In this document: in pieces, positions 196 to 25,500 of the stretch
Layout of the letters: each line of letters starts with the position of its first letter
Position numbering within the stretch: position 1 is the stretch's first letter
From: Candidatus Electrothrix yaqonensis
GTDB taxonomy: Bacteria > Desulfobacterota > Desulfobulbia > Desulfobulbales > Desulfobulbaceae
Direction of reading: 5' to 3'
Assembly: GCA_047651235.1 (NCBI GenBank)
Contig: CP178758.1
Span: 1,830,001 to 1,862,000, forward strand
Length of the DNA stretch: 32,000 nucleotides
Made by a program: the position numbers and the translations under genes
Notes under the pieces: generated by a model
What the model was told of the DNA's origin: nothing
The model's input: the letters and a program-made list of their open reading frames with translations, nothing else
Database searches by the model: none

Positions 196-307
196 CTTGT
201 ATAAGAAAGTTGATTACTGCTGTTTCCTTCTGAATTGCAAGAGAAAGAGAGGAGAAAATTTGCGGTGCGGCTTTCGTAAAAAGTTTGTCAGTCGTATACA
301 GAAACAA

Positions 308-526
308 CATTCATAATTATGGCAGCGCTTATTCAGTAAGCAGGTGCTGTGCTTTCCGGTCGGAAACGGAAAGCTGATAAAGCCACAACCGCCGCGAGGC
401 GGTGTCGGAAAACTTCGGGTCTCCGGAAAGGAGACGGCCGGGTTGCCTGCTTTTAGTCAGATGTACCGGGAGGTAAGTTATGAAGTCGAAGCTCCTTAAA
501 ACGGTCTGTAACCATACAGTCCTTTT
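308..526 (+). ncRNA. Structured RNA unit 1 (riboswitch-like or sRNA-like, class unassigned)
   Basis: Closing helix AAGCAGG (338-344) / CCTGCTT (446-452). Hairpin A 351-358/367-374. Hairpin B ACCGCC-GCGA-GGCGGT (388-403, GNRA loop). Hairpin C GTCTCC-GGAAA-GGAGAC (419-435). Then GGGAGG (468-473) and ATG (480-482). Then hairpin GGTCTGTA-ACCA-TACAGTCC (503-522) followed by TTTT (523-526). GNRA loops exist only in + strand sense. Confidence 0.6.
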
Positions 527-544
527 ACCTTTCACAAACACGAA

Positions 545-766
545 CATTCATAATTATGGCAGTGCTTATTATTCAGTAAGCAGGTGCTGTGCTTTCCGGT
601 CGGAAACGGAAAGCTGATAAAGCCACAATCGTCGCGAGGCGATGTCGGAAAACTTCGGGTCTCCGGAAAGGAGACGGCCGGGTTGCCTGCTTTTAGTCAA
701 ATGTACCGGGAGGTAAGTTATGAAGTCGAAGCTCCTTAAAACGGTCTGTAACCATACAGTCCTTTT
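545..766 (+). ncRNA. Structured RNA unit 2
   Basis: Same architecture, core 578-692. Hairpin B is ATCGTC-GCGA-GGCGAT (628-643). Relative to unit 1, one C-G pair has become T-A (629:642) and one has become a T:G wobble (632:639). ATG 720-722. Hairpin plus T-run 743-766. Confidence 0.6.
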
Positions 767-784
767 ACCTTTCACAAACACGAA

Positions 785-1003
785 CATTCATAATTATGGC
801 AGCGCTTATTCAGTAAGCAGGTGCTGTGCTTTCCGGTCAGAAACGGAAAGTTGATAAAGCCACAACCGCTGCGAGGCGGTGTCGGAAAACTTCGGGTCTC
901 CGGAAAGGAGACGGCCGGGTTGCCTGCTTTTAGTCAGATGTACCGGGAGGTAAGTTATGAAGTCGAAGCTCCTTAAAACGGTCTGTAACTATACAGTCCT
1001 TTT
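785..1003 (+). ncRNA. Structured RNA unit 3
   Basis: Core 815-929. The closing pair of hairpin A changes from G-C to G:T (828:851). Hairpin B has a C-G to T:G change (870:875). The other changes fall in loops (GTCGGAAA to GTCAGAAA; ACCA to ACTA). ATG 957-959. Hairpin plus T-run 980-1003. Confidence 0.6.
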
Positions 1004-1021
1004 ACCTTTCACAAACACGAA

Positions 1022-1194
1022 CATTCATAATTATGGCAGCGCTTATTCAGTAAGCAGGTGCTGTGCTTTCCGGTCGGACACGGAAAGCTGATAAAGCCAC
1101 AATCGTCGTGAGGCGATGTCGGAAAACTTCGGGTCTCCCAAAGGAGACGGCCGGGTTGCCTGCTTTTAGTCAAATCTGTACCGGGAGGTAAGTT
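1022..1194 (+). ncRNA. Structured RNA unit 4 (3' part replaced by unique sequence)
   Basis: Core 1052-1165. Hairpin B is ATCGTC-GTGA-GGCGAT (1102-1117): the loop is GTGA, still GNRA, and the stem carries the same compensated pair as unit 2. The hairpin C stem is kept while its loop changes (GGAAA to CAAA). GGGAGG then ATG at 1195. Confidence 0.55.
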
Positions 1195-1422
1195 ATGAAA
1201 TCGAAGTTCCCCAGAAGCGGCTTGCAGCTGTCTGTTTTCTTCAGCTGCGCCAGCAGTTCAGCTGGTCGCCGCCACTCTTCTCCTTCTGTTCGGAAAAAAC
1301 ACAAAATATTTACGGATAGTATCGGCTCCAAGTGTCATCGATCAGGTGCAGTTTTAGCTCTGTCTCCAGATTTCAAAGAGGGACAGTTCGACGATACTGA
1401 AAAACATCATTCAACCTGCTAA
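1195..1422 (+). CDS. Hypothetical 75-aa ORF starting at the conserved SD/ATG of RNA unit 4 (doubtful)
   Basis: GGGAGG lies 7 nt upstream of the ATG. The product has no recognisable motif and odd composition. It is the only ORF in 788-1640. It may be noncoding. Confidence 0.2.
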   Translation: MKSKFPRSGLQLSVFFSCASSSAGRRHSSPSVRKKHKIFTDSIGSKCHRSGAVLALSPDFKEGQFDDTEKHHSTC

Positions 1423-1587: not shown

Positions 1588-1664
1588 TATCAAGCAATAC
1601 TCGAAAGCAAAAAATAGATATCACGCTTCTTAAGAATATTTTGCTTCGACTGGAGGTTTTGAGA

Positions 1665-2078
1665 ATGGATAGATATTTTACAATAATACTACTGATGTTA
1701 TTTCTTTGTACTGCGTCTGTGGCTATTGGAAAAGAAAATAAACAATTTTCCGGTGCTTTTTTGATTGACCAAACTGTAAAAGCAAACGATTTTACCGGGA
1801 AATCTGTTAGTGATGCCGGTGTTGCCCAAGGCGGAAATGTTGTTACAGGAATGGCGATTGCAGGAGTAGGTCAGAACGCAATTCTTGACGGTGACCTTGA
1901 ATTGAAAATGAAAAAAGGCGAGCGCAACACCCAGGGCCTGAACGTTGTTTCCGGCAAAGTAACGGCGCTTGTCGGTCAGATCGGCGTGGTTGATGAGGAT
2001 GCCGCACTGAAATCTGTAGGCAATGAGAAGTCTGCGCAGGGCATAAACGTGGTCAACGCCTGCGAGGGATGTCAGTAA
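1665..2078 (+). CDS. Secreted QG-x-NV repeat protein, copy 0 (137 aa; chimeric: divergent low-GC 5' part, 3' part identical to the array)
   Basis: GGAGG (1652-1656) lies 8 nt before the ATG at 1665; the track start at 1641 is a TTG. Hydrophobic signal peptide MDRYFTIILLMLFLCTASVAIG. From nt 1917 onward it is identical to the downstream copies. Confidence 0.8.
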   Translation: MDRYFTIILLMLFLCTASVAIGKENKQFSGAFLIDQTVKANDFTGKSVSDAGVAQGGNVVTGMAIAGVGQNAILDGDLELKMKKGERNTQGLNVVSGKVTALVGQIGVVDEDAALKSVGNEKSAQGINVVNACEGCQ

Positions 2079-2093
2079 TCAGGAAGTCGAAAA

Positions 2094-2151
2094 CGCCGGA
2101 CGGTGCGTGTCCGGCGGTACAGGATACAACGGAAGCGGTGGGGACCGCTTC
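2094..2151 (+). other. Intercistronic double hairpin, present in all six 111-bp spacers (also at +537, +1074, +1611, +2148, +2685)
   Basis: Hairpin CGCCGGAC-GGTGCGT-GTCCGGCG (2094-2116) and hairpin GAAGCGGT-GGGG-ACCGCTTC (2132-2151). Neither is followed by a T-run. TACAAT (2163-2168) and GGAG follow. Confidence 0.6.
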
Positions 2152-2189
2152 ATTAACTACACTACAATTGTACTACGGAGACTGAAGAA

Positions 2190-2615
2190 ATGAAAATGAA
2201 ATTTATAGCAGCAGCATTCGCACTGGCACTGGCAGTACCCGCAGCATCCATGGCCAACGGCGGCAGGCATCATCAGTTCGGCGGTCAGGCTGCCGGTATC
2301 GTGCAGGGTCTTGAAACCGGTGAGGATTTTTCGGCAGATTCAATAGGCGACGAGAAAGTCACTCAGGGCGGCAACGTGGTCAAGGGTAATGTGACCAAAG
2401 GTATCCTGCAGCTCGCCGATGTGGGCGGTGATCTTGATCTGACCATGGTGGGCGGCGAGCGCAACACCCAGGGCCTGAACGTTGTTTCCGGCAAAGTAAC
2501 GGCGCTTGTCGGTCAGATCGGCGTGGTTGATGAGGATGCCGCACTGAAATCTGTAGGCAATGAGAAGTCTGCGCAGGGCATAAACGTGGTCAACGCCTGC
2601 GAGGGATGTCAGTAA
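2190..2615 (+). CDS. Secreted QG-x-NV repeat protein, array copy 1 (141 aa)
   Basis: GGAG lies 9 nt before the ATG. Signal peptide MKMKFIAAAFALALAVPAASMA. QG-x-NVV occurs at residues 59-64, 94-99 and 129-134, exactly 35 residues apart. C-terminus is NACEGCQ. Confidence 0.85.
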   Translation: MKMKFIAAAFALALAVPAASMANGGRHHQFGGQAAGIVQGLETGEDFSADSIGDEKVTQGGNVVKGNVTKGILQLADVGGDLDLTMVGGERNTQGLNVVSGKVTALVGQIGVVDEDAALKSVGNEKSAQGINVVNACEGCQ

Positions 2616-2726
2616 TCAGGAAGTCGAAAACGCCGGACGGTGCGTGTCCGGCGGTACAGGATACAACGGAAGCGGTGGGGACCGCTTCATTAACTACACT
2701 ACAATTGTACTACGGAGACTGAAGAA

Positions 2727-3152
2727 ATGAAAATGAAATTTATAGCAGCAGCATTCGCACTGGCACTGGCAGTACCCGCAGCATCCATGGCCAACGGCGG
2801 CAGGCATCATCAGTTCGGCGGTCAGGCTGCCGGTATCGTGCAGGGTCTTGAAACCGGTGAGGATTTTTCGGCAGATTCAATAGGCGACGAGAAAGTCACT
2901 CAGGGCGGCAACGTGGTCAAGGGTAATGTGACCAAAGGTATCCTGCAGCTCGCCGATGTGGGCGGTGATCTTGATCTGACCATGGTGGGCGGCGAGCGCA
3001 ACACCCAGGGCCTGAACGTTGTTTCCGGCAAAGTAACGGCGCTTGTCGGTCAGATCGGCGTGGTTGATGAGGATGCCGCACTGAAATCTGTAGGCAATGA
3101 GAAGTCTGCGCAGGGCATAAACGTGGTCAACGCCTGCGAGGGATGTCAGTAA
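2727..3152 (+). CDS. Secreted QG-x-NV repeat protein, array copy 2 (identical)
   Basis: Translation and flanks identical to 2190-2615. Confidence 0.85.
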   Translation: MKMKFIAAAFALALAVPAASMANGGRHHQFGGQAAGIVQGLETGEDFSADSIGDEKVTQGGNVVKGNVTKGILQLADVGGDLDLTMVGGERNTQGLNVVSGKVTALVGQIGVVDEDAALKSVGNEKSAQGINVVNACEGCQ

Positions 3153-3263
3153 TCAGGAAGTCGAAAACGCCGGACGGTGCGTGTCCGGCGGTACAGGATA
3201 CAACGGAAGCGGTGGGGACCGCTTCATTAACTACACTACAATTGTACTACGGAGACTGAAGAA

Positions 3264-3689
3264 ATGAAAATGAAATTTATAGCAGCAGCATTCGCACTGG
3301 CACTGGCAGTACCCGCAGCATCCATGGCCAACGGCGGCAGGCATCATCAGTTCGGCGGTCAGGCTGCCGGTATCGTGCAGGGTCTTGAAACCGGTGAGGA
3401 TTTTTCGGCAGATTCAATAGGCGACGAGAAAGTCACTCAGGGCGGCAACGTGGTCAAGGGTAATGTGACCAAAGGTATCCTGCAGCTCGCCGATGTGGGC
3501 GGTGATCTTGATCTGACCATGGTGGGCGGCGAGCGCAACACCCAGGGCCTGAACGTTGTTTCCGGCAAAGTAACGGCGCTTGTCGGTCAGATCGGCGTGG
3601 TTGATGAGGATGCCGCACTGAAATCTGTAGGCAATGAGAAGTCTGCGCAGGGCATAAACGTGGTCAACGCCTGCGAGGGATGTCAGTAA
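3264..3689 (+). CDS. Secreted QG-x-NV repeat protein, array copy 3 (identical)
   Basis: Translation and flanks identical to 2190-2615. Confidence 0.85.
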   Translation: MKMKFIAAAFALALAVPAASMANGGRHHQFGGQAAGIVQGLETGEDFSADSIGDEKVTQGGNVVKGNVTKGILQLADVGGDLDLTMVGGERNTQGLNVVSGKVTALVGQIGVVDEDAALKSVGNEKSAQGINVVNACEGCQ

Positions 3690-3800
3690 TCAGGAAGTCG
3701 AAAACGCCGGACGGTGCGTGTCCGGCGGTACAGGATACAACGGAAGCGGTGGGGACCGCTTCATTAACTACACTACAATTGTACTACGGAGACTGAAGAA

Positions 3801-4226
3801 ATGAAAATGAAATTTATAGCAGCAGCATTCGCACTGGCACTGGCAGTACCCGCAGCATCCATGGCCAACGGCGGCAGGCATCATCAGTTCGGCGGTCAGG
3901 CTGCCGGTATCGTGCAGGGTCTTGAAACCGGTGAGGATTTTTCGGCAGATTCAATAGGCGACGAGAAAGTCACTCAGGGCGGCAACGTGGTCAAGGGTAA
4001 TGTGACCAAAGGTATCCTGCAGCTCGCCGATGTGGGCGGTGATCTTGATCTGACCATGGTGGGCGGCGAGCGCAACACCCAGGGCCTGAACGTTGTTTCC
4101 GGCAAAGTAACGGCGCTTGTCGGTCAGATCGGCGTGGTTGATGAGGATGCCGCACTGAAATCTGTAGGCAATGAGAAGTCTGCGCAGGGCATAAACGTGG
4201 TCAACGCCTGCGAGGGATGTCAGTAA
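3801..4226 (+). CDS. Secreted QG-x-NV repeat protein, array copy 4 (identical)
   Basis: Translation and flanks identical to 2190-2615. Confidence 0.85.
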   Translation: MKMKFIAAAFALALAVPAASMANGGRHHQFGGQAAGIVQGLETGEDFSADSIGDEKVTQGGNVVKGNVTKGILQLADVGGDLDLTMVGGERNTQGLNVVSGKVTALVGQIGVVDEDAALKSVGNEKSAQGINVVNACEGCQ

Positions 4227-4337
4227 TCAGGAAGTCGAAAACGCCGGACGGTGCGTGTCCGGCGGTACAGGATACAACGGAAGCGGTGGGGACCGCTTCA
4301 TTAACTACACTACAATTGTACTACGGAGACTGAAGAA

Positions 4338-4763
4338 ATGAAAATGAAATTTATAGCAGCAGCATTCGCACTGGCACTGGCAGTACCCGCAGCATCCATG
4401 GCCAACGGCGGCAGGCATCATCAGTTCGGCGGTCAGGCTGCCGGTATCGTGCAGGGTCTTGAAACCGGTGAGGATTTTTCGGCAGATTCAATAGGCGACG
4501 AGAAAGTCACTCAGGGCGGCAACGTGGTCAAGGGTAATGTGACCAAAGGTATCCTGCAGCTCGCCGATGTGGGCGGTGATCTTGATCTGACCATGGTGGG
4601 CGGCGAGCGCAACACCCAGGGCCTGAACGTTGTTTCCGGCAAAGTAACGGCGCTTGTCGGTCAGATCGGCGTGGTTGATGAGGATGCCGCACTGAAATCT
4701 GTAGGCAATGAGAAGTCTGCGCAGGGCATAAACGTGGTCAACGCCTGCGAGGGATGTCAGTAA
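4338..4763 (+). CDS. Secreted QG-x-NV repeat protein, array copy 5 (identical)
   Basis: Translation and flanks identical to 2190-2615. Confidence 0.85.
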   Translation: MKMKFIAAAFALALAVPAASMANGGRHHQFGGQAAGIVQGLETGEDFSADSIGDEKVTQGGNVVKGNVTKGILQLADVGGDLDLTMVGGERNTQGLNVVSGKVTALVGQIGVVDEDAALKSVGNEKSAQGINVVNACEGCQ

Positions 4764-4874
4764 TCAGGAAGTCGAAAACGCCGGACGGTGCGTGTCCGGC
4801 GGTACAGGATACAACGGAAGCGGTGGGGACCGCTTCATTAACTACACTACAATTGTACTACGGAGACTGAAGAA

Positions 4875-5300
4875 ATGAAAATGAAATTTATAGCAGCAGC
4901 ATTCGCACTGGCACTGGCAGTACCCGCAGCATCCATGGCCAACGGCGGCAGGCATCATCAGTTCGGCGGTCAGGCTGCCGGTATCGTGCAGGGTCTTGAA
5001 ACCGGTGAGGATTTTTCGGCAGATTCAATAGGCGACGAGAAAGTCACTCAGGGCGGCAACGTGGTCAAGGGTAATGTGACCAAAGGTATCCTGCAGCTCG
5101 CCGATGTGGGCGGTGATCTTGATCTGACCATGGTGGGCGGCGAGCGCAACACCCAGGGCCTGAACGTTGTTTCCGGCAAAGTAACGGCGCTTGTCGGTCA
5201 GATCGGCGTGGTTGATGAGGATGCCGCACTGAAATCTGTAGGCAATGAGAAGTCTGCGCAGGGCATAAACGTGGTCAACGCCTGCGAGGGATGTCAGTAA
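4875..5300 (+). CDS. Secreted QG-x-NV repeat protein, array copy 6 (identical; last unit)
   Basis: Translation identical to 2190-2615. Downstream sequence diverges immediately after the stop codon. Confidence 0.85.
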   Translation: MKMKFIAAAFALALAVPAASMANGGRHHQFGGQAAGIVQGLETGEDFSADSIGDEKVTQGGNVVKGNVTKGILQLADVGGDLDLTMVGGERNTQGLNVVSGKVTALVGQIGVVDEDAALKSVGNEKSAQGINVVNACEGCQ

Positions 5301-5503: not shown

Positions 5504-5941
5504 ATGGTAAAAAAAATATTTTTTACAATAGGCACCGCTGCGATCTTTTTGTTGCCGTCAGCGGCTATGTCACATGAACGAGGTAATCTCTTTGATCAGT
5601 TTAACAATGCTGATGTTGCGGCATTTCAGGGAGTATTTCTGGACCAGGCCATGACAGTGACGTCGTCGAATGATACCAATTCTGTTCAGGGACTGAATGT
5701 GATCAAGGGATTTGCTGCCGGTGGCAAAGTGGTACAAAAGGCTATAGTTGACGCAGACTTATCGTTTGATATGTCTGGCGGGAACGATGCTGTTCAGGGG
5801 ATCAATGTCTATCAGGGCCATCTCAGGAGGGGGAAAATCTCTCAGCTGGCGATTGTTGACGGTAAGGTCACGATGGCATCAAGCGGTAATGATGGTGGAA
5901 TTCAGGGGATTAATGTGATCACCGGCCCTCAGTGCAACTGA
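5504..5941 (+). CDS. Divergent paralog of the QG-x-NV repeat protein (145 aa)
   Basis: AGGAGG lies before the ATG. Signal peptide MVKKIFFTIGTAAIFLLPSAAMS. QG-[LI]-NV at residues 62, 98 and 134 (36-residue spacing). C-terminus is GPQCN. Confidence 0.8.
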   Translation: MVKKIFFTIGTAAIFLLPSAAMSHERGNLFDQFNNADVAAFQGVFLDQAMTVTSSNDTNSVQGLNVIKGFAAGGKVVQKAIVDADLSFDMSGGNDAVQGINVYQGHLRRGKISQLAIVDGKVTMASSGNDGGIQGINVITGPQCN

Positions 5942-6033: not shown

Positions 6034-6381
6034 ATGAAAAGAAGTCTTATATTATCCGTTGTGTTATGCTGTTCTGTCCTGGCGGTTCAGGCGGCGTGTG
6101 CGTCTGAAGATGGAATGAAGATAAAAAAAGCAGACATTCCAAATGCAAACAGGACAGGGACTCTGGCATCAGTAATGAAGAAGGCCAAAGGGATTCAGGA
6201 TGATCAAGGACAAATTAACGAGATAACCGGCGGCACTAAGCTGACTGACGAAAAAGGAAACATCGTTGTTGTTGATGACCTAGACGAACCCACATGTGTT
6301 TTTTACGGCAATTACAACGAAGGTGACGCTAACGTCGATCAATATTTCAATATTGATAAGCTTGAGATTCAATGCAATTAA
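6034..6381 (+). CDS. Small secreted protein (115 aa), distant or minor member of the same locus
   Basis: GGGAGGAG (6021-6028) lies before the ATG at 6034; the track start at 5932 adds a non-signal-like extension. Signal peptide MKRSLILSVVLCCSVLAVQAACA. One QGQINEITGG motif. The C-terminus EIQCN shares QCN with the 5504 paralog. Confidence 0.7.
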   Translation: MKRSLILSVVLCCSVLAVQAACASEDGMKIKKADIPNANRTGTLASVMKKAKGIQDDQGQINEITGGTKLTDEKGNIVVVDDLDEPTCVFYGNYNEGDANVDQYFNIDKLEIQCN

Positions 6382-6596
6382 GGACAAGACAACGGGATAA
6401 TCTGCTGTCCTGTTTGTTTCGTTACCTTCTCTGAAGTTTTTTCTGATATTTTTGTTGTATTTTTTATCCTTTCCCGGTTAGAATCAGCAACAAAGAATAT
6501 GAGAATAAACTTATGAGGAAGGGTGTCTTCGGATAACTGTCTGACTCCTCCTTTCTCTTTCTTTCCCCCAAGTTGCTGCCATAGCATGCCTGCCTT

Positions 6597-6623
6597 AAAT
6601 GCCTTTTGTCTGGGCATTTTTTA
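6597..6623 (+). terminator. Candidate intrinsic terminator ending the small-protein operon
   Basis: AAATGCC (6597-6603), 9-nt loop, GGCATTT (6613-6619), then TTTTAT. The stem is short and AT-rich. Confidence 0.45.
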
Positions 6624-6727
6624 TGCGTTTAACAGGCTATTATGTCGTTTCCGCATAGTAGGCGGTAGCTTGGGTTACCTTCCCTGAAAAACACGAGCTG
6701 CTTTTCAGCGGCAAAAATGCAAAATAA

Positions 6728-8266
6728 ATGAAGCGGTTACTCCGATCAGCCTGTCTGGGTGCTGTCCTGGCATGTATAAATACGGGATGCACAAATGTTG
6801 ATTCCGTAATATCAAATATTAACAGAGAAACGCCGTATTCTGCCTCAACAAATCTCACCGAAACGTTGAAATGTATAGGTATGGTGATCAATGAATCCGA
6901 ATCACGCCCTATTCTCTTTCTGGTAGATGATTTTTTTGACGGCACTGTTCCTATTGTAACAGATGCTCAAGCTATCCTGACAAGAGCCTACAGAAGTAAC
7001 GGCCCACTGGCTGACGGGGGAAAATATGATTTTGAGGCTGTCATCAAGCGGACAGTCTCCAGTCAGAAAATTGTCCTTCCGTATGCACTGCCCACCGGTG
7101 TAATACAGCATGAAGACATATATGGAAGGCTGAAGCCGGAGTACTTACAGGATCTTCTTAAAATATATAATGTCTCCGGTGTCGTCAGAGTGAAAGGAGT
7201 ATTCACCCAGAATGATTCCGCCGACTATATAAACAACGGATCCGGCAACAGTATCGAGCAGGAGGGAAAACGTGGTCGGACCGAGATAGAATACGGTCTC
7301 TCTGAAGCGTCCAAAAGTGTATCTCTGGCAATCTATCTGGGAAGTCCCTTGAATAATACTCTGATTGCCGCCACAACATTGACACTCAACATGCATACAA
7401 TGTCTGATGAGTTTTCAGTTGGTTTCGGATACGGGGAAGGTTCGATGAGTTTTGTCAACGAATCAAAAATTAAGGAAGGGCTGCATGGTTCGCAGAGAAC
7501 TCTGATTGAAGCTGCCGCAATGTGGATACTGCGCGGTCTGTACAGCAAACTTGATTTTTCTCAATGCGTTGCAGGGGGAGACGGAGAAGGCGGTGCTGCT
7601 ACACCTGATGCGACGATTGCGGCAAATGAAAGATGGCTGTCGCTTGATCCGGGAATGAAAATAAAATATCTGAAATTGATGCTCAGAGAGTTGGAGTACT
7701 ACAACGGTTCGATCAGCGACAGATATGATATCCCTCTGCAGAAAGCAATTGCCGCGTATGAAGCTGACAGCGGTATAATGATACCACATACAAAACATAA
7801 TCTGGGTGATCTGTTTATCTCACTATACGGTGCTGTTGAGATTGAAGAAATTGACAGAATGGCAAAGCATTCGGAAGTTTTCTTCGGAAATTGGGGCAGG
7901 AAACCGAAGAAAAGCACTGAGAAGGAGAATGCTGAACAGAGAGCTGTTAATCAGGATACTCCTGAAGATACTACGACTGGTCAGCAAAAAGATTCTGAGC
8001 AGAAGCCCATCAGGCAGGATTCTTCTAAAAAGGAGACCGCTAATCAGAAAAATCAGAAGCAGGCGCCCGCAGCTTCTGCGCAGAGGTCTGTTAATCAGGG
8101 GAACCCCGGAAATACAACTGGTAGGGAGAAGCAACAGATCCCTGAACAGAGGAAACCTGCTGAACGGGAGAGTACTGAAAAAAAACCGGTTGAAAGGAGG
8201 ATAGGGAGAAATACCACTGCCGGTTTGGTTATTATAAACGGTAAACGTCCTGTTAATTATAAATAG
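6728..8266 (+). CDS. Lipoprotein: CsgG-like(?) N-terminal domain + PG_binding_1-like domain + disordered K/Q/E-rich tail (512 aa)
   Basis: Signal with lipobox VLAC (MKRLLRSACLGAVLAC). My by-eye alignment to E. coli CsgG: ILFLVDDFFDGT versus KIFVSVYNIQDETG; VVRVKGVFTQNDS versus IMVEGSIIGYESN; SVSLAIYLGSPLNNTLIAATTLT versus QIAVNLRVVNVSTGEILSSVNTS. The PG-binding pattern is KYLKLMLRELEYYNGSISDRYDIPLQKAIAAYEADSGI. The last 130 or so residues are low complexity. Confidence 0.75.
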   Translation: MKRLLRSACLGAVLACINTGCTNVDSVISNINRETPYSASTNLTETLKCIGMVINESESRPILFLVDDFFDGTVPIVTDAQAILTRAYRSNGPLADGGKYDFEAVIKRTVSSQKIVLPYALPTGVIQHEDIYGRLKPEYLQDLLKIYNVSGVVRVKGVFTQNDSADYINNGSGNSIEQEGKRGRTEIEYGLSEASKSVSLAIYLGSPLNNTLIAATTLTLNMHTMSDEFSVGFGYGEGSMSFVNESKIKEGLHGSQRTLIEAAAMWILRGLYSKLDFSQCVAGGDGEGGAATPDATIAANERWLSLDPGMKIKYLKLMLRELEYYNGSISDRYDIPLQKAIAAYEADSGIMIPHTKHNLGDLFISLYGAVEIEEIDRMAKHSEVFFGNWGRKPKKSTEKENAEQRAVNQDTPEDTTTGQQKDSEQKPIRQDSSKKETANQKNQKQAPAASAQRSVNQGNPGNTTGREKQQIPEQRKPAERESTEKKPVERRIGRNTTAGLVIINGKRPVNYK

Positions 8267-8415: not shown

Positions 8416-9384
8416 CTAATACCGCAACCCGACCCGATCCCGTACCAGCTCCAGGGTTTCGGTCGCCTTTGCCCGCGCTTTATCCGCTCCCTTCCGCAGC
8501 ACCTCCCGCAAATACTCCTGATTCTGCAACAGCTCTTTCTTTTTTGCTCTGGCATCGGCAAAATAATCCCGGATCAGTTCAAAGAGATCCTGTTTCAGAT
8601 AGCCGTAGGCCGCCCCCCCATTGACATAGAGATCCTGCACCTCTGCCATTTTTTCTGCAGAGGCAAAGAGCTTGAGCAGAGCATACAGATTGCATTTATC
8701 CGGGTCTTTCGGCTCTTCCACCGGGGTGGAATCGGTCTGCACCGCCATCACCTGTTTACGCAGAGGTTTATCCTCCAGAAAGATCGGAATGGTATTGCCG
8801 TAGGATTTAGACATTTTCTGGCCGTCAAGGCCCGGAACAATGGCTGTGGCTTCGCTGATTGCCGGTTCCGGCACTACAAAGGTTTCACCGAAGGTGTTGT
8901 TGAACTTGATGGCAATATCGCGGGCCACCTCCAGATGCTGTTTTTGATCCTTGCCCACCGGCACGACCTCTGCCTGATAGAGCAGGATATCCGCCGCCAT
9001 GAGCACCGGATAGGCAAACAGACCGTGACTGGCCGCAATACCCTTGGCCACTTTATCCTTATAGGAATGGCAGCGCTCCAGCAGGCCCATGGGCGTCATA
9101 GTGGACAGTATCCAGGACAGTTCACAGACCTCCGGCACATCTGACTGGACCCAGAAGGTGCAGCGCTCCGGATCAAGCCCTAGGGCCAGGAAATCCGCAG
9201 CCGCCTCAAGGGTGCCGGTGGAGAGTTTTTCCCGGTCATGCACGGAGGTCAGCGCGTGGAGATCCACAATAAAGACATAGAGATTCGCTGTCTCCATATT
9301 GGAGATCATCGTCTTCATCATGCCGAAATAATTGCCGATATGAAGCTGTCCTGAAGGCTGGATGCCGGAGAGTATACGTTGCAT
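8416..9384 (-). CDS. trpS: Tryptophan--tRNA ligase
   Basis: 322 aa. Class I signatures are HIGN (GQLHIGNYFG) and KMSKS (GQKMSKSYGN). Overall TrpRS-like sequence. Confidence 0.95.
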   Translation of the reverse strand: MQRILSGIQPSGQLHIGNYFGMMKTMISNMETANLYVFIVDLHALTSVHDREKLSTGTLEAAADFLALGLDPERCTFWVQSDVPEVCELSWILSTMTPMGLLERCHSYKDKVAKGIAASHGLFAYPVLMAADILLYQAEVVPVGKDQKQHLEVARDIAIKFNNTFGETFVVPEPAISEATAIVPGLDGQKMSKSYGNTIPIFLEDKPLRKQVMAVQTDSTPVEEPKDPDKCNLYALLKLFASAEKMAEVQDLYVNGGAAYGYLKQDLFELIRDYFADARAKKKELLQNQEYLREVLRKGADKARAKATETLELVRDRVGLRY

Positions 9385-9510
9385 GGTATCTGCTGTCTGA
9401 ATTCACGGTTGAAATGACTTGGCCGGGAGAATATACCAGTAAATCCGTCCGGTCGCAAGAAGCAGGGCTGAAAGGGGTGTGAACCAAAGTGCGGCAATAT
9501 CATTCTGCAT

Positions 9511-9545
9511 AAAAACAGCAGGGGCACGGCAGCCGTGCCCCTGCT
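9511..9545 (-). terminator. Rho-independent terminator downstream of the MEMO-family gene
   Basis: Minus-strand sense reads AGCAGGGGCACGG-CTG-CCGTGCCCCTGCT followed by GTTTTTAT, starting 6 nt after the TGA stop at 9552-9554. Confidence 0.85.
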
Positions 9546-11138: not shown

Positions 11139-11891
11139 TCACCCCTGAATAGCGTAGCCTCCGTCAACCACCACGGACTGTCCGTGGATCATGGCGGCAC
11201 CTTCACTGCACAGGAACAGGGCAAGGTCAGCCACATCTTCCGGTGTGGTCAGGCGGCCAAGCGGAGTCATCTCAAGAGAACGACCGATAATATCTTCCCG
11301 GTTGGGAAATTTTTTCAGAGCATCCGTGTCCACCACCCCGGCGCTGATGGTGTTGACTGTGATTCCCTTGGGGCCAAGTTCCACGGCCAGATGCCGGACC
11401 AGAGATTCCAGCGCAGCTTTGGAGGCACCGACCACGGTATAGTTGGGTACTGCCCGTACCGCACCGAGACTGGAGACCGCAAGGATTCTTCCGCCCTGCC
11501 CCATCATCGGCACAGCATGCTGGCTCAGGGTCAGCATGGCCCGGGCATTGATGTCCATTGCCCAGTCCCAGTGACGTTGGGTCAGTTCCATGGCCGGTTT
11601 CAATACCCCGGAGGCGGCATTGGAGACCAGGATATCCATCCTGTCGTAGGTGGCTCTGATTTCATCGAACATCCTCTGCACATCTTCTTCTTTGGCAACA
11701 TTGGCTTTGATTGCAAGGCAGCCCACGCCGTATTGTTCAATAGCTGCAGCGGTTTCTTCTGCATCGCGACGATGCCGGACATAATTGACCACAAGGTTTG
11801 CACCGTGTTCTGCCAGCCGCACGGCAATGGCCCGGCCGATACCGCGGGATCCGCCGGTGACGAGTGCTGTTTTCCCCTGCAAATGAAACAT
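11139..11891 (-). CDS. fabL: SDR-family enoyl-[acyl-carrier-protein] reductase, FabL type
   Basis: TGGSRGIG Rossmann motif. HWDWAMDINA, YTVVGASKAALE and DTDALKKFPNRED closely recall B. subtilis FabL as I remember it. AGGAGG lies before the ATG. Confidence 0.7.
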   Translation of the reverse strand: MFHLQGKTALVTGGSRGIGRAIAVRLAEHGANLVVNYVRHRRDAEETAAAIEQYGVGCLAIKANVAKEEDVQRMFDEIRATYDRMDILVSNAASGVLKPAMELTQRHWDWAMDINARAMLTLSQHAVPMMGQGGRILAVSSLGAVRAVPNYTVVGASKAALESLVRHLAVELGPKGITVNTISAGVVDTDALKKFPNREDIIGRSLEMTPLGRLTTPEDVADLALFLCSEGAAMIHGQSVVVDGGYAIQG

Positions 11892-12280
11892 CTATGTCCT
11901 CCTGTGCAAAAAAATGTCTGGTCCGTGTTTCTTCTGTTTTCTTTATTTTCCAAGATAGAAGAATATCGGCCTGTCAAGATTGAATGTGCCGCTGCTGAGT
12001 ACTCAGTCCGGATAAATGTACCCTGCAGTGGTTGTCTTTGCAAGGTCAATAAAATGTATCCTATTTGCCGGTTACTCCGGTCTGTCATGGAAGAAAAATT
12101 GATGCGGAAAAGCCGGTCATGCCGGTGACAGCAGAAGCGGAGTTCATGATTGACAGAATAAAAAAGCCAGGTAAAGTTATAGTAGGGGAGTTCCTCCGTT
12201 CCTGCAGATAACACGTAACATTATATAGGTATGCCTCACTTATTCAACAGGAAAAATAAGATCCGACAAGGAGATCTCTT

Positions 12281-13177
12281 ATGAAAATGAAATGCATCTC
12301 GGCATCTTTACTGCTCTTTTTACTCTTTTGGTTTGTTCCGACTGTTCAGGCGGCCGATTATACGAACAGTCTCGGTATGCAGTTCAACAATATCCCTGCC
12401 GGAACCTTCTTTATGGGGAGCTGTCTCCCTGAAGGAGCTGTCTGTCCCGGCAGGGGAAAAGCGGATAAAGATGCCCATAAGGGAGAGGCGCCCAAGCACG
12501 AAGTGCGGATTAGCAGAGGATTTCAGATAGGTGTTTATGAAGTCACTTTAGGAGAGTTTAAACAATATCTTGCCTGCCTGCCCGCCGGAGAGCGGGCTGC
12601 AGTGGCAACAGACAGATTCAGCAGATTTAATACACACGGGGATAATGCGGCTGTGGTGGTTGTTTCCTGGGAGGATGTACAGGGATTTATCCGCTGGCTG
12701 AACAAAAAAGAGGGTGGCCGTGCCTACCGGCTGCCCACCGAGGCGGAATGGGAGTATGCTGCCAGGGCGGGAACAGAGACGGTGTATTTCTGGGGCGATG
12801 AACCGGAGAAGGCTCCGGAATATGCCTGGCTTAACATGGAAGGAGCAGACCTGCGCAAATGGTTCCAGAAAGGGCCTTCGGGGAAAAAAGAAGATTTTCC
12901 TCATCCAGTCGGTCTGAAGAAACCCAATCCCTGGGGCTTATACGATATAGCTGGCAATGTCTGGGAGTGGGTGGATGACTGGTACAGCGAGGACTATTAC
13001 CGCATCAGTCCCAAGGTTGATCCGACCGGTCCGGCAACCGGTCGTGTCCGTTGTTTTCGGGGCGGCAGCTGGTACGGGTCGGCAAGGAATTTGCGCTCCG
13101 CTGTCCGCGGGCTGAATACCCCAGATTACCTCAGCGATTCTTTGGGATTCCGTCTGGTGCGGCAGGTCGGACGATAA
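12281..13177 (+). CDS. Secreted formylglycine-generating-enzyme (SUMF1/FGE-sulfatase) domain protein
   Basis: Signal peptide ...VPTVQA. YRLPTEAEWEYAARAG, GNVWEWVDDWY and RGGSW are hallmark strings of the FGE-sulfatase domain. AGGAG lies before the ATG. Confidence 0.85.
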   Translation: MKMKCISASLLLFLLFWFVPTVQAADYTNSLGMQFNNIPAGTFFMGSCLPEGAVCPGRGKADKDAHKGEAPKHEVRISRGFQIGVYEVTLGEFKQYLACLPAGERAAVATDRFSRFNTHGDNAAVVVVSWEDVQGFIRWLNKKEGGRAYRLPTEAEWEYAARAGTETVYFWGDEPEKAPEYAWLNMEGADLRKWFQKGPSGKKEDFPHPVGLKKPNPWGLYDIAGNVWEWVDDWYSEDYYRISPKVDPTGPATGRVRCFRGGSWYGSARNLRSAVRGLNTPDYLSDSLGFRLVRQVGR

Positions 13178-13243
13178 TTTTTCTCAGTTTCTCTGCAAAC
13201 AGGGCCGGTTCGGACCGGTTTGCAGCGGGTGGATATGATACCC

Positions 13244-14029
13244 TCATCTTTTTTCCCTGCTGAAGCGTTCTTTGAAAATCAGATAGAAAAAAAACAGGTT
13301 GCCGATCAGATATCTCTTCCACAATCGTTTCGGTTCGATGAGCAGTCTGGCCAGCCATTCCATGCCGTTGTCTGTCATCCAGCTAGGGCCTCGGCGCAAT
13401 TCCCCGGAAACATAGTCGAACAGGGCACCGGCGGAAAAACCGACATTGACGTTCAGCCTGTCCCAATTTTCCTTGAGCCACTTTTCCTGCAGCGGCATAC
13501 CGAACCCGACAATCAGAACATTGGCCTTTGAGGCATTGATCAGGCGGATAATTTCCTCATTCTCCGGCGAATCCGGGGATTTGTCAAAATATCCGTGCCG
13601 GGTGGTGATCTGCAGAGCAGGAAAACGTTCTTTCAGTTTCAGCGCAGCTTTGTCGGCGATACCCGGTTTTGCCCCGAGGAAAAAAAAGCTGATGCCTTTC
13701 TCTTCCGCCAGTTCTGCCAGGCTCCACATCGAATCGGCCGGGGTGCTGCGCCCCGGTATGTGATGACCCAGAATTCTGGCGCCCAGGACAACACCGGCTC
13801 CGTCACAGAAGACCAGCCCGGCCTGATTGAGAAAATCCCGCAGCCAGGGGTTATGATACACCATATTGTAGCAGTGCGTATTGACATTCAGGACCAGAGA
13901 CTTGCGTTGTCGGGCAACTACATCGGCGATGTACTGGCAGATTCCTGCTTCCCCTAACAGATGGACCTGCACACCGAGGATAGGGACACTGTCGAGATGG
14001 TCAAAAGACTGTATGGATTGGGTTGTCAT
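13244..14029 (-). CDS. WecB/TagA/CpsF-family glycosyltransferase
   Basis: DGAGVVLGARILG and ...GPSWMTDNGMEWLARLLIEPKRLWKRYLIGN are typical of this family. Start set at the ATG at 14029 (MTTQSIQ); the alternative at 14092 would overlap the upstream gene. Confidence 0.8.
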   Translation of the reverse strand: MTTQSIQSFDHLDSVPILGVQVHLLGEAGICQYIADVVARQRKSLVLNVNTHCYNMVYHNPWLRDFLNQAGLVFCDGAGVVLGARILGHHIPGRSTPADSMWSLAELAEEKGISFFFLGAKPGIADKAALKLKERFPALQITTRHGYFDKSPDSPENEEIIRLINASKANVLIVGFGMPLQEKWLKENWDRLNVNVGFSAGALFDYVSGELRRGPSWMTDNGMEWLARLLIEPKRLWKRYLIGNLFFFYLIFKERFSREKR

Positions 14030-14054
14030 GGTACGGTCATCAGATAAACAGGAC

Positions 14055-15212
14055 TTACTGAACAAGTTCAGTGTACAGGCGCATGTAGGCATCTGTCATT
14101 GTTTTTGCAGAGTACTTTTCCGCTATGGTTGCAAAGGCATTGGCCGCCATCCTGTCTGCTTCTTCGGGAAGGCGCAGCAGCCGGAGCATTGCGGAAGCCA
14201 GCTTTTCCGCATTGGCCGGAGGGACCAGCAGGCCGTTTTCCTCATCTTGGATGATCCGGCCTACCCCGCCGACTTCACTTGCAATGACCGGGAGTTGCGC
14301 GGACATGGCTTCCAGCAGGGCCATGGGTGTGCCTTCCAGCAGCGAAGGCAGAACAAAAATATCCAAGGCAGAATAGAATGCAGCGATATTCGGACGGAAT
14401 CCGGCAAAGATCACTGCGTCCGAGATACCGAGTTCTACAGCGTATTGCCGCATTTCGTCCCCCTGAAACCCGTCACCCACAAGAATAAAATGTGCTTCAG
14501 GGAAAACTTTCAGCACCTGCGCAGCTGCAGCAAGAAAGTATTTCTGGCCTTTTTCCGGGCTGATCCTGCCGAATACGCCGATCAGCGGCGTTCCCGGCGC
14601 GATCTTGAATTCTTCGCGAATTGTGTCCCTTGCCTGCTGATCTTTCCGGAATTCCTGCATATCGATCCCGTTGATGATCACCTGCATTTTTCCGGCCGGG
14701 GTCAGATAGCGGCGCATGAGCTGCCGGACCTCCGGTGAAACCGCGACGATTTTCGGAAAAAAGCGGATGTAAAAAGCATCCAGGGATTCAAAGCAGGTGA
14801 CCAGAAAATCACTGCGGATCCAGTTGTGATTTGTGGTGATGAGCCGGGCCGGAGTGCCCATTGCAGAGAGCAGGCCGTAGAGCCGTCCTTTCATTTCATG
14901 GCAGTGGACAACGGCAATGTTCTCCCGGCGGATGAGTTCCCTGATCTGCCGCACCGCTTCCGGATCGATCCATCTCCGGCAGGTGATGACATGCCCCTGA
15001 GCGTCTTTTGCCTGGGCAGCATTGATCAGTTCCATGTTCGGATAGCCTTCCGCTTGGAGCAGGGCTATAGACGGGGTGAAGCGGCTGTGGTCCGTAGCGC
15101 CGATCAGATTCAGGATAATGCGTTCAGCACCGTACAGACCGCGGCTGCTGATCAGATGGAGTACGTTCAGAGGCTGCTGCTCTACGGTATTCTGTGTATT
15201 CTGCTTCGTCAT
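14055..15212 (-). CDS. Glycosyltransferase family 4 (GT-B, group 1)
   Basis: 385 aa. N-terminal LHLISSRGLYGAERI and C-terminal ...LPSLLEGTPMALLEAMSAQLPVIAS...ENGLLV (the E-x7-E region of GT4). Confidence 0.85.
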   Translation of the reverse strand: MTKQNTQNTVEQQPLNVLHLISSRGLYGAERIILNLIGATDHSRFTPSIALLQAEGYPNMELINAAQAKDAQGHVITCRRWIDPEAVRQIRELIRRENIAVVHCHEMKGRLYGLLSAMGTPARLITTNHNWIRSDFLVTCFESLDAFYIRFFPKIVAVSPEVRQLMRRYLTPAGKMQVIINGIDMQEFRKDQQARDTIREEFKIAPGTPLIGVFGRISPEKGQKYFLAAAAQVLKVFPEAHFILVGDGFQGDEMRQYAVELGISDAVIFAGFRPNIAAFYSALDIFVLPSLLEGTPMALLEAMSAQLPVIASEVGGVGRIIQDEENGLLVPPANAEKLASAMLRLLRLPEEADRMAANAFATIAEKYSAKTMTDAYMRLYTELVQ

Positions 15213-22590: not shown

Positions 22591-25500
22591 TTACAAACCC
22601 TGTGCTTCCTCCAGACAGATTCTGAGTTCCTCTGCGAGTTTCGGAAAAAGGGGGTAATCGAACATTTCCAGATGGTGCCCCTTGATTATACGATAATCTA
22701 CGTCTCCGGCAAACGCCGACCAGTCTCTGAAGGTTGAAGAATCCATTCTTTCCAGTTTCTTCAGTTTCATTTCGTTCCGGAAAATCGTAATTTTTCCCGG
22801 ATAAAATTGAGGGATGTACTCATCCTGAGCAGCTATATGCGCATTCAATGTATATTCGAGCCTGTTGATTTTCGCAGGGAACAGCTTATTATACAGGGTG
22901 AAGAATTTATTTTTCACCCTGTAGTAACGGCGGTAGAATAAAAAATCCGTCAGAGCAGGGAGCAGCTGCCCCTGTTTGGAATAAGACAGGAAATTACGGG
23001 CGTAATAACCGATTTTTTTGTGCCTTGTTACCTTTGTCGGGCAGTTTGGCAGAACAGGCGGATCAGGCGGATCCAGCAGCGCCACCAGACCGACTGTGCA
23101 GCCCTGTTCCCGGAGCTGCCGGGCCATTTCAAAGGAGACGCAGGCACCGAAACAGGGGCCCCCCAGATAATACGGGCCGTCAGGCTGTAGTTTCCGTATC
23201 TTAAGGATATAATAGGCTGCCATGTCTTCAACCCGCGCATAGGGTTCCTCTCCCTCTTCAAAGCCGAGCGGCTGTATGCCGTACAGCGGCTGATCTGCTC
23301 CGATATACTCCCTGTAAGGGCCAGCACTTACCGCAGTACTTCCTCCCTGCGGCACAAAGAAGAAAGGAGGTCTGGACCCGCCGGGCGGGATCGGAACAAG
23401 AGTGCTGCCGGGCGCTGAATAGCCTTCCTGTTTCAGGACGTTGGCCAGCTGCTCCACAGTCGGTGCCTCCAGCAGTATCGACATGGGAAGCTGCCTGTCT
23501 GTTGTCTTTTCTATTTCAGCGAACAGACGGGCAGCCAGCAGAGAGTTTCCGCCCAGATGAAAGAAATTATCCCGCACACTGATCGGCTGCGTCTGCAGGA
23601 GGATCTCCCATATTGCAGTCAGCTGCTGTTCCAGGGTATTGCTGGGGGCGACAAAATTTTTCTCTGATACCTCTCTGATCCCCTGGTCCGGTTCCGGTAG
23701 TGCCTTACGGTCTGCCTTGCCGTTAGGAGTCAGCGGGATACTGTCCAGGATGGTGAAGCTGGCCGGAATCATGTACTCCGGCAGGCTCTGCCCCAGCCAG
23801 GCCCGCAGCGCAGATATCTCCGCATGGGCACTGCCAGCCTCGGTGATGTAGGCGGCAAGAAATTTATTGTCACCCCGTTCATGCAGCACCACCACTGCCT
23901 CACCGACTGTCTCATGCTGACTCAGCACTGCTTCGATTTCCCCCAGTTCGATCCGGAAACCGCGCAGTTTAATCTGGTGGTCGATACGGCCCAGATATTC
24001 CAGATTGCCGTCATGCCGCCAGCAGGCCAAGTCACCGGTTTTATAGAGCCGGGGCGACTGGAAATCGTCTGCAAAAGGGTTTTCAACAAAGCATCCTGCT
24101 GTCAGCTCCGGTCGATGCAGGTAACCGCGGGCCAGCTGTACACCGCCGAGATAGAGTTCCCCGGCAGCACCGATGGGCACAGGCTGCATCTGATCATCTA
24201 AAACATACGTCTGGGTATTTGCCACCGGGCGACCGATAGGAACGGTGCTTGATGCTGTTCCCGGCTGACACGGCCAGTAGGTGACATCAATGGCTGCTTC
24301 CGTGGGGCCGTAGAGATTATGCAGTTCAGCCTGTTCTGGCTGCAGACGGGTAAAAAAACGTTCCTGAAGAGAAACAGGCAGAGCTTCTCCGCTGCAGAAC
24401 ACCTGTTTGAGGCTGCTGCAGGACTCGACAGCAGGATTTTCCAGAAAAATCTGCAGCATGGAAGGAACAAAGTGAAGCACTGTAATCTGCTGTCCGTTAA
24501 TCAGTTCTACCAGATAGGCAGGATCTTTATGGCCTTCCGGTTTTGCTATAACTAAGCGTGAACCGATGATGAGCGGCCACCAGAATTCCCAACCGGAAAC
24601 ATCAAAGCTGAAGGGGGTTTTTTGGAGAACGCGGTCTTCGGGTGTCAACCGGTATTCATCCTGCATCCATAATATCCGGTTGATAAGCCCCTTATGGGTA
24701 TTCATTGTCCCCTTGGGTTTACCCGTAGAGCCGGAGGTATAAATAACGTAGATTAAGTTTTCCGGGGTTATTCCGCTGACAGGGTTCTCCTGATTCTTTT
24801 CCTGATTTTCTGCTGCAATCGTCTCCCAGTCTGTATCCAGACAAAGTATCTTGCCCTGGTATTCGGGCAGGTCTGCTTGTAAACGGTTCTGGGTCAGCAG
24901 AACGGAAACCTCCGAGTTTTCGATCATATATTCAAGCCGTTCTTGCGGATACCCCGGATCCAGAGGGACATATGCCCCTCCTGCCTTGAGAATGCCCAGT
25001 AAGCCCACGATCATTTCAAAAGAACGCTCGATACAGATTCCCACCAAGCTTTCCGGCTGGATTCCCTGCTTCCGGAGATAATGGGCCAGCTGATTGGCCC
25101 GGCTGTTCAGTTCCCGGTAGGTCAGTTCCTGAGCTTCAAACACTGCTGCCACAGCATCAGGCGTCTTGTCCGCCTGCTCTTCAACCTGCTGATGAATAGG
25201 CTTGTGCCAAGGATAATCAACCTGCGTGCTGTTCCAATCCACCAGCACCTGCTGCCGCTCCTGTTCCGTGAGCAGCGGCAGCCCGGTGATCCTCTGATCC
25301 GGATCGGCTGCAATGCCCTCAAGCAGAACAGTGAAGTGTTCCGCCATGCGCTCAATGGTGACGTTGTCAAACAGATCTGTATTGTATTCAAGTTGTCCGA
25401 CTATCCCCTCTTCCGAGCGCTCCTCCAAGGTGAAGGTGAGATCGAGTCTTGCCGTGCCGGGATGCGTTTCGATCTCATTGACAGACCAGCCCAGTTGCTC

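Follow-up and report, generated by a model that had tools for sequence, protein, structure and literature searches.

What would a cable bacterium do with a predicted lipoprotein that resembles the outer-membrane channel CsgG, carries an apparent wall-binding domain and is encoded directly behind an array of genes for small repeat proteins? This question is raised by a stretch of 32,000 nucleotides, called the window throughout, from Candidatus Electrothrix yaqonensis (family Desulfobulbaceae; assembly GCA_047651235.1, contig CP178758.1, positions 1,830,001 to 1,862,000 of the forward strand). The gene in question is designated gene C, and the genes that precede it are designated A, A2 and B. 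CsgG, which is also in commercial use as a nanopore, is the prototype of a lipoprotein that becomes a channel in the outer membrane. The reading that we put forward, on the basis of a predicted structure and with about even confidence, is that the product of gene C would be a wall-tethered, distant CsgG-type outer-membrane channel or anchor serving A and B. Fold, domain architecture, lipobox, gene order and family rarity were all predicted or computed.

Family, fold and domains of the gene C protein

Gene C and the parts of its product are laid out in the window as follows (residue numbers, in amino acids [aa], refer to the gene C protein).

6728..8266, plus strand: gene C, an open reading frame (ORF) of 512 aa for a predicted lipoprotein with a CsgG-like domain, a PG_binding_1-like domain and a disordered tail
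6728..6790, plus strand: signal peptide MKRLLRSACLGAVLACINTG, followed by the family-conserved lipobox cysteine C21 (alignments)
6812..7576, plus strand: CsgG-like alpha/beta domain, residues about 29-283 (AlphaFold2 model, Foldseek, hhalign)
7229..7345, plus strand: predicted long beta-hairpin 1, residues 168-206, tip GKRG at 180-183, at the position of CsgG TM1 (AlphaFold2 model, hhalign register)
7358..7474, plus strand: predicted long beta-hairpin 2, residues 211-249 (211-235/238-249), tip at 236-237, at the position of CsgG TM2 (AlphaFold2 model, hhalign register)
7604..7870, plus strand: helical PG_binding_1-like domain, residues 293-381 (Pfam PF01471, hhalign, AlphaFold2 model)
7874..8263, plus strand: lineage-specific disordered tail rich in K/Q/E/N/R/T, residues 383-512 (composition and model confidence)

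The gene belongs to a conserved but small family. A word-indexed search of 5.8 billion proteins returned 40 close homologues (48-68% identity), and all the named ones among them come from cable bacteria, namely Candidatus Electrothrix, Ca. Electronema and the early cable-bacterial assemblies 'Desulfobulbus sp. F1/F4/TB'. Because it is kept among homologues, gene C is a real gene, and a chance ORF or an assembly artefact was rejected on the same ground. An exhaustive HMMER search with a profile of the N-terminal domain found only 64 clusters at E<=1e-3 among 1.84 billion representative proteins. Most orthologues are 355-400 aa long and end soon past residue 380. In addition, Ca. Electrothrix sp. 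AX5 has a second, divergent gene C paralogue (P0044, 386 aa, about 27% identity), so that some cable-bacterial genomes may hold two such systems.

The N-terminus of the protein, MKRLLRSACLGAVLACINTGC, offers two possible lipoboxes. The preliminary description of this DNA, made from its letters without database searches, had called the protein a lipoprotein on account of the motif VLAC, which ends at C16. The signal is there and VLAC fits it; the cysteine, however, is more likely the conserved C21, which is nearly invariant in orthologues and distant relatives and follows NTG in the window protein (NTGC) and mostly LSG, LAG or LSA in the relatives (LSGC/LAGC/LSAC). By sequence pattern, a lipobox is present in nearly all full-length relatives. 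The product of gene C is probably a lipoprotein acylated at C21 rather than at C16.

The domain behind this signal is predicted to have the fold of CsgG. A template-free AlphaFold2 model was built from 74 sequences that included distant relatives (17-34% identity), and it reached a mean predicted local distance difference test score (pLDDT) of 90.7 and a predicted template-modelling score of 0.85. In a Foldseek search of this model against the PDB, CsgG chains took the top 17 places and 25 of the top 26 (best E 5.5e-8, probability 1.00). The target-normalised template-modelling score (TM-score) was 0.51-0.58 for membrane-bound CsgG with its hairpins (4uv3, 6l7a, 6l7c, 7brm, 6si7), 0.54-0.71 for CsgG 4q79 and 0.39-0.46 for the soluble pre-pore form 4uv2; thus the membrane-inserted conformers fit the model better than the pre-pore form. 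For HpaA, FlgT, PelC and GNA1162 it was 0.25-0.44, with E from 7e-5 to 3e-3. The model places the following elements between the lipobox and the wall-binding domain (gene C residue numbering).

44-56: helix
62-71: strand beta1, ILFLVDDFFDGT, with the LLLVDDFYDGT motif
72-97: conserved loop with a short helix, leading into helix 98-109
137-147: helix
151-162: strand VVRVKGVFTQ, leading into hairpin 1 (168-179/184-206)
184-206 and 211-235: strands (SVSLAIYL, LIAATTLTLN)
252-271: long C-terminal helix containing IEAAAMWILRGL

On this model, the alpha/beta core of CsgG with its C-terminal helix is confirmed as the predicted fold of the gene C protein. With CsgG (PF03783; 4UV3, 4Q79, 6L7A, 6SI7) the protein shares the N-terminal lipidation signal, the alpha/beta core, the long C-terminal helix and, as predicted, two beta-hairpin insertions at the TM1 and TM2 positions, and CsgG is its best structural match. 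The segments that the preliminary description had singled out by eye as CsgG-like, namely ILFLVDDFFDGT, VVRVKGVFTQ, SVSLAIYL, LIAATTLTLN and IEAAAMWILRGL, coincide with predicted strands and the C-terminal helix.

There are also clear differences. Structure-based alignments give about 6-10% identity, and the loop at the position of the CsgG constriction loop (72-103) is longer and has an invariant motif of its own, NGPLADGGKYDFE, at residues 91-103 where the loop runs into helix 98-109. A pair of cysteines sets the family apart as well: in the alignments C49 never varies and C280 hardly does, and the two may form a disulfide. Furthermore, nine CsgG subunits make up a ring whose pore has 36 strands and a constriction loop, whereas the gene C protein is modelled here as a monomer.

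The assignment that stands at the level of the fold does not extend to the sequence family. The preliminary description had placed residues about 40-280 in CsgG and had staked the assignment on a significant match to a CsgG profile; none was found. PF03783 did not match the gene C protein at E<=1 in a Pfam scan or any of 39 orthologues at E<=10, and an NCBIfam scan of the protein gave nothing relevant. A profile of the orthologues, searched against PDB sequences at E<=10, retrieved no CsgG chain and only noise (PapG and a ribosomal protein, E about 0.4-1.2). Weak PF03783 matches occur in two of 65 family members (best E 0.0026), and a Pfam scan of the ten most distant relatives did not pinpoint these two. 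In hhalign, three comparisons with CsgG gave probabilities of 0.6% (a cable-bacteria-only profile against E. coli CsgG, which is uninformative), 4% and 23%. The last of these set the 65-member family profile against a shallow CsgG profile and aligned residues 152-270 with CsgG 135-245 (P 8.8e-4), a segment that corresponds to strand-TM1-strand-strand-TM2-alphaC of CsgG in the correct register. The CsgG profile came from close homologues, the best 120 matches, all at least 83% identical to E. coli CsgG (whose sequence was checked against the PDB), which leaves the profile-profile comparison underpowered. The gene C protein is therefore a distant structural relative of CsgG and not a member of the curated family; evolutionary kinship between the two is probable.

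Could the resemblance be an artefact of structure prediction, or a chance alignment by eye, with the N-terminal domain having some other fold? The CsgG sequence-profile tests, all of them non-significant or weak, are what such a view would expect, as is the low confidence of a first AlphaFold model from 39 close orthologues (mean pLDDT 61), which the 74-sequence model superseded. Foldseek ranked HpaA first for that earlier model, and HpaA and FlgT above CsgG. Both models, however, recover one superfamily (HpaA, FlgT, CsgG, LptE, PelC and GNA1162) at Foldseek probability 1.00; the pLDDT rose to 90.7, template-free, once independent distant homologues had been added; and the hhalign alignment, obtained independently, falls in the matching topological register. 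We consider an artefact highly improbable.

The C-terminal part, which CsgG lacks, is a helical domain that resembles PG_binding_1. The preliminary description had seen a bundle of this type at about residues 320-375, and it appears to be a divergent member of the family. In the gene C protein, PF01471 matches residues 312-349 at E 0.01 and 16.5 bits, under the cut-off of 23; it matches all 39 orthologues (best E 2.2e-5) and 18 of 65 family members (best E 4e-8, among distant relatives). Precomputed Pfam annotation lists PF01471 in the orthologues P0028 and P0029, the former of which NCBI names 'peptidoglycan-binding domain-containing protein'. An hhalign comparison of the family profile with the N-terminal PG_binding_1 domain of the phiKZ endolysin gp144 aligned the whole domain in register (P 9e-4). 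The model shows compact, confident helices at 293-305, 308-321, 335-347, 359-367 and 372-381, with block-mean pLDDT of 92-98, and 72 over the last few residues. Like PG_binding_1 domains such as that of gp144, this part is a short helical bundle with the pattern L..L...GYY.G..D..Y....Q.A...YE, whereas it has, for the most part, SDRYD and IPHT in place of the glycine motifs DG.FG and DG.vG that are usual in the family.

Other wall-binding domains can take the same place. Four distant members have SPOR in the PG_binding_1 position (8e-9), and two have PG_binding_3 (in P0096 at 25 bits against a cut-off of 24.6). Since SPOR or PG_binding_3 can stand in for PG_binding_1, wall binding would be the conserved property, and the swap is good, if indirect, evidence that wall attachment would be the selected function of the C-terminal domain. 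The preliminary description had added that no CsgG family member fused to a peptidoglycan-binding domain was known to it; likewise, no paper describing one was found in titles and abstracts with 'CsgG-like' and 'peptidoglycan'.

Beyond this domain, the window protein continues for 130 residues that are rich in K, Q, E and T, as the preliminary description had noted. Their composition (K16 Q14 E13 N11 R11 T11; 27 basic, 17 acidic and only 16 hydrophobic residues of 130) and their low pLDDT (mostly <35, and about 37 at 391-410, in the first model) bear out a disordered tail. Most orthologues lack it. Long tails occur only in the window protein, P0011, P0028 (E. gigas) and P0029 (AUS3), and P0015 has a shorter extension. 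The tails are dissimilar between orthologues; E. gigas and AUS3 have unrelated repeats instead.

The upstream genes and their conserved order

Upstream of gene C, the window contains an array of genes for small secreted proteins.

1641..2078, plus strand: variant (chimeric) first A copy that differs in its N-terminal half and is identical to the array unit over its final 162 nt
1917..5300, plus strand: 537-bp tandem array, 6.3 units, 0 mismatches (repeat analysis)
Starts at 2190, 2727, 3264, 3801, 4338 and 4875, plus strand: six identical 141-aa A genes in the array (first copy 2190..2615)
5504..5941, plus strand: A2, a 145-aa A paralogue that has three QGxNV repeats and the C-terminus ...GPQCN; its orthologues are the 144-aa Electronema genes
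6034..6381, plus strand: gene B, a secreted protein of about 115 aa (sequence comparison)

Behind its signal peptide, the A protein has three repeats, each about 35 aa long and with the motif [T/A]QGxNVV, and it ends in CEGC. A2 also has a signal peptide, and the repeats of A and A2 alike are about 35 aa long and centred on [T/V/I]-Q-G-x-N-V. Comparison with other loci widens this to an aromatic-poor A-type family (seen in the window, L001, L003-L005, L007, L008 and L010) with repeats of about 35-45 aa around [T/V/I]-Q-[G/A]-x-N-[V/I/L], two to three of them in cable bacteria and up to ten in a gammaproteobacterium. Q[GA]xN occurs 2-10 times per A-type protein at a spacing of about 31-48 residues, compared with 0.17-0.64 in shuffled sequences (for example, 3 vs 0.17 and 10 vs 0.64). 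Most cable-bacterial members end in CxxC or Cx3-4C. The B protein has a signal peptide and a C-terminal EPTCVFYGNYN in the window, or EPKCVFYGNYN in other cable bacteria, and its second cysteine is the next-to-last residue. Pfam and NCBIfam gave no family for A, A2 or B, nor for their homologues at five further loci. A homologue search with A found only 7 close relatives, as the family diverges too fast for a word-based search.

A is probably a beta-solenoid or fibre subunit. The six identical genes and two variants suggest a structural role with a high demand for the protein. That the six copies are perfectly identical may reflect a very recent amplification or gene conversion, or else an effect of assembly. 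Directly upstream of the array lies another tandem repeat (306..1210; 237 bp, 3.8 copies, 94% match), overlapped by two near-identical 72-aa minus-strand ORFs (329..547, 569..787) of non-genic look.

Does the position of gene C behind these genes carry meaning? The preliminary description had pointed out that gene C comes directly after the small-protein genes and had tied the two together. The arrangement is kept in other genomes, and synteny across two bacterial phyla supports the link.

Electrothrix sp. GW3-4 (L001): 137 aa; 111 aa (B, 9179..9514); C, 393 aa
E. gigas: 135 aa; 115 aa; C, 519 aa
Two Electronema loci (L004, L005): 187 or 140 aa; 144 aa; 112 or 113 aa; C
Contig of P0043: 144 aa; 103 aa; then C (known from gene order only)
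L007: 147-aa Q-A-x-N protein upstream of C, in a mobile-element-like region
L008 and L009 (Candidatus Poriferihabitaceae, Gammaproteobacteria, Arenicellales): 496-aa A-type protein with ten Q-[A/G]-x-N repeats; 150-aa B-like protein; C, 568 aa; 244-aa repeat protein
L010 (gammaproteobacterial metagenome-assembled genome): C with a SPOR domain that ends in typical SPOR sequence, then a repeat protein

The order A(-A2)-B-C thus recurs in cable bacteria, with completely different flanking genes between loci. A repeat-protein gene adjoins C in cable bacteria, in a sponge-symbiont gammaproteobacterium and on unclassified metagenome contigs, and the association of an A-type protein with C persists among relatives only 20-28% identical. 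By sequence, B lies immediately upstream of C in all cable-bacterial loci and in the distant loci L006 (3..158) and L008 (7519..7971), and a two-cysteine protein of about 110-150 aa precedes C in most loci with an A-type neighbour. Because the gene order persists and the motif counts lie far above the shuffled expectation, A, B and C probably form a functional module.

The same evidence bears on a plainer explanation, in which C would serve in a general way to tie the outer membrane to the wall, as Pal or Lpp does, and its adjacency to A and B would have no functional meaning. A lipid anchor combined with a peptidoglycan-binding domain is just the architecture of such a tether, the intergenic gap and a terminator-like hairpin lie upstream of C, and the evidence that links A, B and C is genomic. 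The A-type/C association, however, spans Desulfobulbales and Gammaproteobacteria at 20-28% identity with the flanks fully changed; a family of 64 clusters is far too rare for a housekeeping tether; and a conserved, elaborate CsgG-like domain with two hairpins exceeds what a tether needs. We therefore regard a general tether as improbable.

The surroundings of the module differ from locus to locus. In GW3-4 (L001 1..12162) it lies between murG-murC-murB-ftsQ-ftsA-ftsZ plus a radical SAM gene on one side and an omptin-family barrel (E 1.1e-10) on the other. A YkuD-type L,D-transpeptidase gene follows it in the two Electronema loci (about 11200..12270). These cell-wall and division neighbours are not conserved across loci. 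Farther along the window there is a three-module nonribosomal peptide synthetase, encoded by a 3125-aa ORF on the minus strand (22591..31968; 3 Condensation, 3 AMP-binding and 3 PP-binding domains and a thioesterase), and upstream of this ORF several glycosyltransferase genes and an FGE-sulfatase-like gene (12281..15212).

Channel or periplasmic scaffold

What kind of assembly could such a module build? The two hairpins of the gene C protein bear on this. Both are predicted with block-mean pLDDT of about 76-97. Across the 74 sequences, hairpin 1 has hydrophobic or aromatic residues at 172, 174, 176 and 178 and again at 185, 187 and 189, alternating with charged ones, and in hairpin 2 F229, V231, F233 and Y235, together with M240 and F242, alternate with polar residues or Gly. 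Alternation of this sort is the pattern expected of a barrel-forming hairpin, and the model suggests that the protein keeps the hairpins that distinguish CsgG. HpaA (8T8D), the FlgT N-domain (3W1E, 8Z5N), PelC (5T0Z), LptE (5IV9) and GNA1162 (4HRV) share the alpha/beta core with it (Foldseek probability 0.9-1.0); none of the five is known to have paired long hairpins at the TM1 and TM2 positions.

The following scheme would account for these features. C would be acylated at C21 and sorted to the outer membrane, where it would oligomerise in the manner of CsgG, two hairpins per protomer building an outer-membrane beta-barrel. On the periplasmic side, the PG_binding_1-type bundle would tie the assembly to the cell wall. 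The assembly would export A, itself delivered by Sec, or hold it at the envelope, and B would have an accessory or adaptor role, formally comparable to that of CsgE or CsgF. In this scheme we infer the oligomerisation, the membrane insertion, A as the substrate and the role of B.

Several observations weigh against a CsgG-type channel. No sequence profile assigns the protein to the CsgG family, the best hhalign probability being 23% with a shallow CsgG profile. The fold is common to the non-pore lipoproteins HpaA, FlgT, PelC, LptE and GNA1162, and HpaA ranked first with the poorer model. In the hairpins, the hydrophobic stripes are short, each strand contributing 3-4 alternate residues, and hairpin 1 has a highly charged tip. 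A and B have no resemblance to curlin (PF07012), CsgE or CsgF in Pfam and NCBIfam scans. Between B and C lies an AT-rich gap of 346 bp (6382..6727) with a terminator-like hairpin at 6391-6414, and no obvious Shine-Dalgarno sequence precedes the ATG at 6728; given the gap and the hairpin, co-transcription of B and C is not assured and gene C may have its own promoter. Finally, the known fibres of cable bacteria are periplasmic, and if A remains in the periplasm there would be no need for a pore through the outer membrane.

Some of these points suit a different assembly, in which C would be a periplasmic scaffold and not a pore, in the manner of the FlgT H-ring, PelC, HpaA or LpoB. Its lipid would sit in the outer membrane and its C-terminal domain on peptidoglycan, its hairpins would serve oligomerisation or docking, and together with B it would nucleate or anchor a periplasmic polymer of A. 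Most of the lipoproteins with the common fold reside in the outer membrane, at whose inner side they assemble into rings or plugs and not into channels. The short stripes and the charged tip of hairpin 1 agree with a scaffold, and the recurrent fusion to wall-binding domains fits an anchor well. The neighbours of the module, among them the dcw division cluster in GW3-4 and the YkuD L,D-transpeptidase in Electronema, also speak for a scaffold, as does the periplasmic location of the cable-bacterial fibres, which lie on a layer of polysaccharide that is presumed to be peptidoglycan (bioRxiv 10.1101/2020.10.23.351973). With the confident model, however, CsgG is clearly the closest structure and is outscored by no non-pore relative; HpaA, FlgT, PelC and GNA1162 all score below it, and the membrane-inserted conformers fit better than the pre-pore form. 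The hairpins, moreover, lie at the TM1 and TM2 positions and are amphipathic family-wide. A non-pore scaffold is a possible but somewhat unlikely arrangement in our judgement, and a wall-tethered, CsgG-type channel or anchor is the reading that we carry forward.

Curli, conductive fibres and the wider family

Curli (csgBAC-csgDEFG) and Fap offer the nearest comparison for the module as a whole. All three (A-B-C in outline) encode, side by side, repeat subunits exported by Sec, at least one small accessory protein and an outer-membrane component of their own, and CsgG, like gene C, has as its coding neighbours secreted repeat proteins with Gln/Asn/Gly motifs and a small accessory protein. There is no sequence homology between the components, however: the partners of gene C are not curlin, CsgE or CsgF. 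The repeats of A are about 35-45 aa long and of the Q-[G/A]-x-N type, the outer-membrane component would be tethered to the wall, and the cable-bacterial A ends in a C-terminal CxxC. Taken together, the module suggests an undescribed curli-like system for fibre export or anchoring. The differences from CsgG and curli are a protein outside the CsgG sequence family, its fused wall-binding domain, unannotated partner families and an A protein that ends in CxxC. Full-text literature searches found no paper linking cable bacteria with CsgG, and titles and abstracts on cable bacteria and amyloid described no such system or fusion.

Could the module build or anchor the envelope structures that are peculiar to cable bacteria, that is, the periplasmic conductive fibres, the insulating shell or the ridge compartments? 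The fibres are reported to resist sodium dodecyl sulfate, to have a high content of sulfur and nickel and to be seated on what is probably peptidoglycan (bioRxiv 10.1101/2020.10.23.351973). The fibre protein is not identified in the comparative-genomics sections of recent papers on cable bacteria. A would polymerise in the envelope, where its CxxC could form disulfides or ligate nickel through sulfur, and a CsgG-like, wall-binding C would position the polymer between peptidoglycan and outer membrane. The conservation of the module in both cable-bacterial genera, the amplification of A to eight gene copies, its terminal CxxC and the wall anchor on C speak for such a role. Other features count against it: Tyr and Trp are absent from mature A and Phe occurs only twice, whereas aromatic residues are reported to be abundant in the fibres; A has only two cysteines; and sponge-symbiont Gammaproteobacteria, in which conduction is not known, have the module too, with A proteins that lack the CxxC. 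On balance, we think a part in these structures unlikely.

For the family, the consequences would be broader. A very distant branch of CsgG, if true, that is rare, keeps the hairpins, accepts interchangeable wall-binding domains and works with a different repeat protein would widen the known roles of the fold, and A, B and C would define three protein families that are currently without annotation. For the organism, the envelope of cable bacteria is the site of long-distance electron conduction. With a module kept in both genera and a tandemly amplified A, this locus provides a concrete, testable candidate for an abundant structure of that envelope.

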